Below, one piece after another: positions 31,371 to 32,289 of a stretch of 64,000 bases of DNA (position 1 is the first letter of the stretch; every line of letters begins with the position of its first letter). The stretch lies in NCBI RefSeq assembly GCF_003018255.1, contig NZ_CP027440.1, one strand, 5' to 3'. The translations under genes and the position numbers were made by a program. The DNA comes from Escherichia coli. GTDB taxonomy: Bacteria; Pseudomonadota; Gammaproteobacteria; Enterobacterales; Enterobacteriaceae. The notes beneath the pieces are model-generated. The model was not told where the DNA came from and ran no database searches. It saw only the letters and a program-made list of their open reading frames with translations.

Positions 31371-32289
31371 ATATTATCACTTACTGGCGGCTCATACTGA
31401 GCTGGTTAATGCTGTGCACACACAAACAAGCAATTCCATTTGTAATGTGCCTCCCTGGCAGTTTCATCCGGAACCCGGACGAAAGTAAAAATGCATATGA
31501 GTTGCACTAAAAAAGCGACTCACATTGTTCCGTTATAATGCCTGAAGTAGATCACAGAATATATCTTCAGGAATCGCATATCTATTAAGTTACTCACTCT
31601 TTTGTATTTATGACATGCGCGTGTTTGTATAAATGTAAATGTGAGTCCTTGTTCCACTCTCGTGCAGCATCGCTGGTCATACGCGAACACGTACAAACAG
31701 CAATGGTGAGGCGGCATCAAGAGCAGGGATCCGTCATTTATGCGAGCATTTTACCCCAAAAACCTTTTATTTATAAGGGTCATTGCGAATTATCTGATGC
31801 AAAGTTATGTTATGTTAGGCAAAGTAATCTTCTATTATTAATAAGCACAACAAAACCTTTTTGAATATTAAATAATAATTAATTAGCATCATCCTCATAC
31901 ATTAATCCCGCTTAACAATAGTTTCACACCTTGCACCCATTACGACACCTCGGAAATCATCACGCTGTTAAACTCTCCGTAATGCGGAAATATCATCATC
32001 ACGATTCATTAGTGAATTCTTAAACGAGGCATTTTCAAACAATTATCTTACAGATAAAAAAACCACAGTCGCAATTAAGAATCAGAACAATTCACTACAT
32101 AACATTAATTACTAAGCATATACACCTCATTATTTTGCCACTATTAAGTTATTAACAGCACAATCGAGTCTTCCCCTCTGGCAAAATCTTATTCTGCAGA
32201 CCTTCAAAACGCCGTCCTGGGGGAGTACATTGTTCTAAGCTGACTTCCACGGCAGGGAGTGGCGATAACAGCAAAAAAGGTCAAGATTC

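Follow-up and report, generated by a model that had tools for sequence, protein, structure and literature searches.

In the 64,000-nucleotide (nt) stretch of the Escherichia coli chromosome analysed here (the window), lrhA (30432..31370, minus strand) and alaA (32290..33507, plus strand) form a divergent pair separated by a gap of 919 bp (31371..32289). This gap is very probably a compound control region of the two genes, in which each promoter has its own set of conserved elements and the long lrhA leader is the target of several small RNAs (sRNAs). It is a real and ordinary regulatory region that has already been published, with nothing new in kind; our contribution is a strain-level coordinate map and a comparative picture of its constrained and free parts.

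In the arrangement that we propose, lrhA fires from a weak sigma-70 promoter at 31741 (minus strand). The ~190 bp upstream of this promoter would contain conserved, rigidly spaced protein-binding blocks, probably for LrhA, phosphorylated CpxR (CpxR-P) and Lrp, and a further ~250 bp of AT-rich, length-conserved, freely evolving DNA probably carries H-NS. This spacer would hold basal expression low and keep the two promoters apart. The 371-nt leader is bound by Hfq and would present sites for ArcZ (-91..-80), RprA/McaS (-52..-38) and UhpU (-23..-13) within its last ~100 nt. The UhpU site abuts the ribosome-binding site, and sRNA pairing would block translation and destabilise the lrhA mRNA, leading to less LrhA and thereby to more flhDC and motility. 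On the other side, alaA would use just ~110 bp beside the gene, comprising an Lrp-like box, a -35/-10 pair and a ~50-nt leader with a hairpin. Because LrhA acts close to the top of the hierarchy for motility, fimbriae, RpoS and CRISPR-Cas, the timing of swimming, sticking and self-defence in E. coli is set by this control region, a role that is already recognised and under study. An earlier interpretation made from the DNA letters (the sequence-only reading) had arrived at much the same picture, and it is upheld here except for its phased A-tracts and its globally structured leader.

The K-12 MG1655 counterpart of the gap (2,406,642-2,407,560) is also 919 bp long, and nothing is annotated inside it, either in K-12 MG1655 or in a 99.8%-identical genome record. 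Segment 31200..32450 is matched in 5425 of 5426 complete E. coli genomes, with a top identity of 99.8%. The 99.8%-identical genome shares its coordinates with the window, and by its annotation the gap is the largest intergenic one in the window, as had been claimed, the runner-up being the nuoA-lrhA gap with 629 bp. The extreme AT-richness previously noted around 31850..32150 is equally real. The gap has a guanine-plus-cytosine (GC) content of 38.4%, compared to 52.5% for the window; segment 31742..32150, at 31.8%, is the most AT-rich 400 bp in the 64 kb, and the 12 lowest-GC segments of 400 bp all lie inside the gap.

To place these features in a family-wide frame, we compared the best 80 LrhA loci from a contig scan, all from Enterobacteriaceae. 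The homologue search returned close Enterobacter, Citrobacter and Escherichia relatives, and loci of Serratia, Pectobacterium, Yersinia and Photorhabdus lie outside the sample. The alignment comprises 42 gaps, one per different Enterobacteriaceae species, and 19 leaders were used for RNAalifold. A divergent alaA lies next to lrhA in 78 of the 80 loci, 764-1140 bp away. Across species, the distance from the alaA ATG to the lrhA transcription start site (TSS) is 509-554 bp (median 546), the lrhA leader is 334-587 nt long (median 393), and upstream GC is 29-41% in every species compared. The longest leader, in Entomohabitans teleogrylli (L086), owes its 587 nt to a ~200-nt GC-rich, partly palindromic insert between two conserved 3' boxes, which may be a small mobile or repetitive element.

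Mapping conservation along the 42 gaps reveals high values at 32200..32289 beside alaA, in an island at 31900..31929, at the lrhA core promoter (31750..31779) and in the final ~80 nt of the leader, with smaller conserved blocks between the island and the lrhA promoter. Two parts, 31930..32200 and the first two-thirds of the leader from its 5' end, reach a low identity of 0.25-0.46 per 30-bp bin. Since lrhA itself, in this set of species, has an identity of 0.42-0.58 at third codon positions, both parts look near-neutral in sequence. Within E. coli, the gap carries 30 substitutions relative to K-12, of which 3 fall in the leader. Divergence from K-12 is 0.8% in the leader and 6.1% in the AT-rich 31742..32150, against 3.8-4.9% at third codon positions, which by this measure indicates purifying selection on the leader within the species. 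The resulting family-wide map of constraint, which singles out both core promoters, the distal box described below, the last ~80 nt of the leader and the alaA hairpin, can steer mutagenesis without changing the understanding of the locus.

The lrhA promoter and its Hfq-bound leader

The following features define the start of the lrhA transcript.

31371..31741, minus strand: lrhA 5' untranslated leader, with +1 at 31741 (published 371-nt leader and primer SM079 mapping)
31748..31777, minus strand: lrhA core promoter, CTTATA (31777..31772), 18-nt spacer, TAAAAT (31753..31748), conserved in 42 species
31785..31797 (-56..-44), minus strand: block CAGATAATTCGCA, conserved in many genera, overlapping a promoter-like -10 GATAAT

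The 5' untranslated region (UTR) of lrhA has been reported to be 371 nt long (Melamed et al. 2023, PMC10578931). The 3' part of the fusion primer SM079 (ATAAATGACGGATCCCTGCT) is the exact minus-strand sequence from window position 31741, which is therefore the published lrhA +1. Sequences CTTATAAATA and GGTTAAGAT at the promoter are conserved in the 42 species and properly positioned for this start, with the -10 TAAAAT located 7 nt ahead of +1. The -35 CTTATA is weak, scoring 3/6, and suggests that the promoter depends on an activator. A consensus promoter scan additionally reports CTAACA-18-GATAAT at 31818..31789 (minus strand), 40 bp upstream of the mapped promoter; its -10 overlaps the block CAGATTATTCGCA, conserved in many genera, and this pair may mark either an additional promoter or a site bound by a protein. 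The claim that the gap houses the lrhA promoter with a long leader is thus confirmed, the leader being well above 200 nt from a start that was mapped by experiment in the literature.

Published work places this leader under Hfq control, in line with the RNA-level role that had been suggested for it. Hfq co-precipitates 150- and 350-nt 'ig-lrhA-alaA' leader fragments, and a 1.5-kb lrhA mRNA accumulates in an hfq mutant (Bilusic et al. 2014, PMC4152368). Sequencing of RNA pairs ligated on Hfq (RIL-seq) recovered chimeras of the lrhA leader with UhpU, ArcZ, RprA and McaS; UhpU, ArcZ and RprA repress an lrhA-lacZ fusion, whereas McaS is recovered in chimeras but leaves the fusion unrepressed (Melamed et al. 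2023, PMC10578931). Sequences complementary to the seeds of all four sRNAs are found near the 3' end of the leader, in the following order from the start codon (all positions relative to the AUG).

31377..31383 (-13..-7), minus strand: Shine-Dalgarno-like UAAGUGA, AGUG identical in 42/42 species and flanks in at least 70-90%
31383..31393 (-23..-13), minus strand: UhpU pairing site GAGCCGCCAGU, complementary to UhpU nt ~224-232
31408..31422 (-52..-38), minus strand: C/A-rich box GUGUGCACAGCAUU, complementary to the UGCUGUGUGU seed common to RprA and McaS
31428..31442 (-72..-58), minus strand: conserved box CAAAUGGAAUUGCUU, proposed 5' half of a hairpin enclosing the RprA/McaS box
31450..31461 (-91..-80), minus strand: candidate ArcZ site CUGCCAGGGAGG, complementary to the ArcZ seed UUCCCUGG (nt 67-79)

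The UhpU site can be fixed at the nucleotide level. The lrhA-M1 gBlock (GCCGCCAGU to GCCGCGAGU) abolishes repression by UhpU, and UhpU-M1 restores it (Melamed et al. 2023, PMC10578931). Its C>G change maps to window position 31386, 16 nt before the AUG and within the predicted UhpU duplex. Citrobacter braakii and C. youngae (L016 and L018) naturally carry a G at the equivalent of 31386, the base that abolishes UhpU repression, which fits the published view that the pairing of UhpU with lrhA originated in Escherichia. In the C/A-rich box, the CACAGC core is nearly invariant in the 42 species, and the box would form 12 contiguous pairs with McaS 45-57 and 9 with RprA 62-70. The candidate ArcZ site is conserved in Escherichia, Citrobacter and Salmonella only. 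The exact positions of the ArcZ and RprA/McaS sites are putative. Unrestricted RNAduplex runs of the full sRNAs against the leader were discarded, as they produced unrealistic whole-length duplexes.

DNA upstream of lrhA and the predicted alaA promoter

Between the lrhA promoter and the alaA side lie two further conserved blocks and a long spacer.

31864..31887 (-146..-123), minus strand: conserved AT block AATTAATTATTATTTAATAT, a putative bending or nucleoid-protein site
31901..31928 (-187..-160), minus strand: distal box TGTGAAACTATTGTTAAGCGGGATTAATG, direct repeats GTGAA-N6-GTTAA, in the conserved island 31929..31900
31930..32180, no strand: AT-rich spacer, poorly conserved in sequence (0.25-0.46 per 30-bp bin) and conserved in length

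Wherever the distal box has at most one mismatch and the -35 anchor of lrhA was located, the two are 139-143 bp apart, and the distance of the box to the alaA -10 is mostly 300-317 bp across species. The box resembles the 11-bp direct repeats of CpxR, ArcA or PhoP type, a consensus match that assigns it to none of the three. The RcsB box, an OmpR-like repeat and the IHF consensus have no match or chance-level matches only in the gap. Lrp-like sequences (consensus YAGHAWATTWTDCTR, at most 3 mismatches) occur 8 times in the gap against 1.2 expected, a surplus that the AT-rich background inflates. We found no published role for the rigid spacing of the distal box or for a spacer that is fixed in length and free in sequence.

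Several regulators have been linked to lrhA by experiment. Strong repression of lrhA by H-NS has been described in BW25113, which is evidence on expression and not on binding, and Lrp binds lrhA directly and activates it, as seen by chromatin immunoprecipitation followed by sequencing (ChIP-seq). Other published reports describe binding of phosphorylated CpxR to lrhA in enterohaemorrhagic E. coli and in Xenorhabdus, autoregulation by LrhA, and overexpression of lrhA upon insertions in the alaA-lrhA spacer. With respect to H-NS-silenced DNA, the region shows the expected low GC (31.8% versus 52.5%), a property conserved across genera, and lacks a nucleation motif and helical periodicity. The idea of nucleoid-protein (H-NS/Fis/IHF) control draws support from the published H-NS effect on lrhA expression and from the Lrp ChIP-seq; an H-NS motif is missing and the IHF consensus is at most at chance level. 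The assignment of individual blocks to LrhA, CpxR-P or Lrp, and the occupancy of the spacer by H-NS, are probable features of the model.

Natural variation also touches this DNA. Three E. coli genomes carry IS1 insertions in the gap, two in the leader at 31593-31601 (L091) and 31635-31643 (L090), both with 9-bp target duplications, and one in the distal box at ~31896-31910 (L089). A further ~40 E. coli genomes have no single match spanning 80% of the gap. The gap is a mutational target in wild E. coli, as these insertions attest, and given the published effect of insertions, the IS1-carrying isolates may misexpress lrhA. The spacer at 31930..32180 holds most of the differences from K-12 in 31742..32150, and 11 of the 30 differences in the gap cluster within 48 bp in a hypervariable patch at 32066..32113. 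The spacer haplotype of the window is a minority one: an identity of 99% or more to it is reached by 699 of 5425 genomes, the majority being ~97% identical.

The alaA side is compact and contains three elements.

32182..32196, plus strand: Lrp-like box CAAAATCTTATTCTG, 2 mismatches to YAGHAWATTWTDCTR, a conserved block just upstream of the alaA -35
32203..32231, plus strand: predicted alaA core promoter, TTCAAA (32203-32208), 17-nt spacer, TACATT (32226-32231), conserved
32243..32260, plus strand: hairpin in the predicted alaA leader, ACUUCC-ACGGCA-GGGAGU

Sequences CTTCAAAA and GAGTACATTG at the alaA promoter are conserved in the 42 species and lie within 90 bp of the ATG, as expected if the gap houses the alaA promoter, which was the second promoter claimed for it. 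The pair TTCAAA-17-TACATT was not reported by the promoter scan because it scores only 8/12. A scan match at 32135..32164 was set aside as a candidate alaA promoter, its sequence not being conserved. The Lrp-like box is a lead towards an Lrp site.

No other element of the gap is as strongly conserved as the hairpin. Each base of CUUCCACGGCAGG is shared by 90-100% of the 42 species, with rare changes restricted to two loop positions, and the 6-bp stem stays paired where it varies, A-U being replaced by G-C in 5 sequences and U-G by U-A in 15. The hairpin is single-copy and 100% identical in 5418 of 5425 E. coli genomes. It has no Rfam match, and we found no role for it in the literature that could be consulted. 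Located where the alaA mRNA is predicted to begin, the near-invariant CUUCC-ACGGCA-GGNAG could be a cis-regulatory RNA or a protein-binding element for the control of alanine synthesis.

It is conceivable that either of two elements is a new device, the hairpin as an undescribed regulatory element on the alaA side or the distal box as part of an enhancer-like complex of fixed geometry acting on a sigma-70 promoter. For the latter, the constant distance to the -35, the AT block in between and the length-conserved spacer beyond the box suggest, for example, an OmpR-family response regulator together with a bending protein opposing an H-NS filament. We consider such a reading unlikely.

Alternative explanations and opposing evidence

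Among the other readings of the gap, the one that deserves most attention is that the leader also yields a trans-acting RNA, the 150- and 350-nt Hfq-bound fragments serving, for instance, as a sponge that titrates McaS or other sRNAs. Stable Hfq-bound leader fragments have indeed been seen without enrichment of the downstream coding region (PMC4152368). McaS gives the most RIL-seq chimeras yet no repression of lrhA-lacZ, which led the authors to propose inhibition of McaS (PMC10578931), and the 12 contiguous pairs with the conserved box would suit such a sponge. However, the fragments are barely detectable in total RNA (PMC4152368) and could be decay products of sRNA-guided cleavage, and a terminator scan finds no intrinsic terminator on the lrhA strand of the leader. 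We regard a trans-acting product as unlikely. It is highly improbable that the leader is a riboswitch, a thermometer, an attenuator or another structured cis-regulatory RNA with a conserved fold. The E. coli leader has a minimum free energy of -112.2 kcal/mol and folds somewhat better than its shuffles (z = -2.4), and two local leader hairpins show some covariation. Yet RNAalifold on the 19 leaders yields -1.4 kcal/mol and 7 pairs, so that a conserved global fold is absent, the strand has no intrinsic terminator, and the gap has no Rfam match at E <= 1. (The single Rfam match in the vicinity, to AaHKsRNA41 at 30321..30392, is due to chance, with 19.6 bits versus a gathering score of 97.) The 7 pairs join CAAAUGGAAUUGCUU (-72..-58) with GCACAGCAUU (-47..-38). 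Enterobacter-like genera show compensatory changes in this hairpin, with AAUG/CAUU replaced by GAAG/CUUC and UGC/GCA by UGU/ACA; on the 42 sequences 72% of cells are paired versus 22-41% when the pairing is slid, and 3 of 500 shuffles reach its covariation score. This lends the putative local hairpin modest support. Of the long structured lrhA 5' UTR in the sequence-only reading, the length of 371 nt is therefore retained and the conserved structure of the leader as a whole is not, covariation being modest and local.

We give hardly any credence to a small protein or regulatory upstream open reading frame (ORF) in the leader. Candidate ORFs do exist at 31520..31720 (minus strand, 66 amino acids (aa), TTG start), 31594..31680 (minus strand) and 31610..31864 (plus strand, 84 aa, ATG start), two of them on the lrhA strand within the transcribed leader. 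Comparison with E. albertii, Citrobacter, Salmonella, Enterobacter and a divergent E. coli lineage shows other lengths, other frames and other sequences; the ORFs are not kept in Kosakonia and Buttiauxella either, and the part of the leader that holds them is merely 27-40% identical between genera. Judged by this comparison, the small ORFs of the gap are spurious, as had been said of 31520..31720 and 31610..31864, which are unconserved even in E. albertii. The AT-rich core could also be viewed as curved DNA with phased A-tracts or as a remnant of horizontally acquired or mobile DNA, given its very low GC and the natural IS1 insertions that cluster in the gap. Against curvature, no 10-11 bp periodicity rises above shuffles, and against a mobile remnant, repeat and tandem-repeat searches of the gap return nothing meaningful. 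Moreover, layout, length and AT-richness are ancestral across the 42 Enterobacteriaceae species, which speaks against recent acquisition. We therefore hold both versions of this reading to be very unlikely.

Several results weigh against the compound control region as we have described it. The phased A/T tracts and curvature of the sequence-only reading are not found: the Fourier power of AA/TT/AT at periods of 9.5-12 bp is not above that of dinucleotide-preserving shuffles (the fraction of shuffles reaching the observed power is 0.23-0.92 across five sub-regions), and the 919 bp hold just 14 A/T runs of at least 4 bases, irregularly spaced. The high-affinity H-NS motif TCGATAAATT has 0 matches in the gap at up to 2 mismatches, no H-NS ChIP data at the gap were found in the literature, and direct binding of H-NS is putative. 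Similarly, a search of the gap for the canonical CpxR box (GTAAA-N5-GTAAA), allowing up to 2 mismatches, finds none, the distal box having an N6 variant, GTGAA-N6-GTTAA. For the four sRNAs, windowed RNAduplex runs on shuffled leaders give energies as good as those on the real leader, and for this reason the placement of the ArcZ and RprA/McaS sites draws on the identity of the seeds and on conservation. Between genera, the leader is not conserved in its 5' two-thirds; there length may matter more than sequence, or this part may have no function. An older annotation with a short 5' UTR before lrhA, mentioned in Bilusic et al. 2014 (PMC4152368), means that a second, proximal lrhA promoter may exist. 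Finally, the alaA TSS near 32238 is a prediction.

Related systems and further observations

The closest comparison for this control region is the K-12 lrhA 5' UTR or 'ig-lrhA-alaA' RNA (PMC4152368, PMC10578931), which is the same locus, of 919 bp in both. Apart from the 3 leader substitutions, the published K-12 constructs have the same sequence as the window at the TSS, the UhpU site and the sRNA boxes, and there is no difference of substance. Like lrhA, the hub mRNAs of flhDC, csgD and rpoS have leaders of several hundred nt on which ArcZ, RprA and McaS act in an Hfq-dependent manner, and they belong to the same motility, biofilm and stationary-phase circuit. In contrast to these three, the conserved pairing sites of lrhA are restricted to the last ~100 nt. 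Contrary to rpoS, where sRNAs activate by opening an inhibitory hairpin, no such activation is known for lrhA, and the sRNAs that repress it in tests only repress.

The divergent layout of alaA with a gene for a LysR-type transcriptional regulator recurs in Serratia sp. ATCC 39006 (alaA-pigU), where intergenic transposon insertions raise pigU. For hexA and pecT, in Photorhabdus, Xenorhabdus and Dickeya, ArcZ pairs with the leader at a distance of 40-85 nt before the AUG, and the sites in hexA (-50..-42) and pecT (-84..-58) are comparable to the candidate site at -91..-80 in lrhA. UhpU pairing, by contrast, is specific to Escherichia and sets lrhA apart from the hexA, pecT and pigU systems. Like lrhA, the H-NS-silenced AT-rich regions of leuO and bgl are marked by a strong local fall in GC, by derepression when hns is mutated and by a hot spot of insertion sequences that activate the gene. 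The lrhA region differs from them in being ancestral and in having neither a high-affinity H-NS motif nor phased A-tracts, and its occupancy by H-NS is presumed.

Two minor observations concern the neighbourhood of the gap. The LrhA database calls P0001 and P0003, from other contigs, are 375 and 382 aa long compared to the normal 312 aa, and look like N-terminal over-extensions into the leader. On the other side of lrhA, the nuoA-lrhA gap (29803..30431, 629 bp, 38.8% GC) is likewise long and AT-rich, and GTAAACTAATGTGAA at 29982..29996 (minus strand), upstream of nuoA, has one mismatch to the CpxR box GTAAA-N5-GTAAA.

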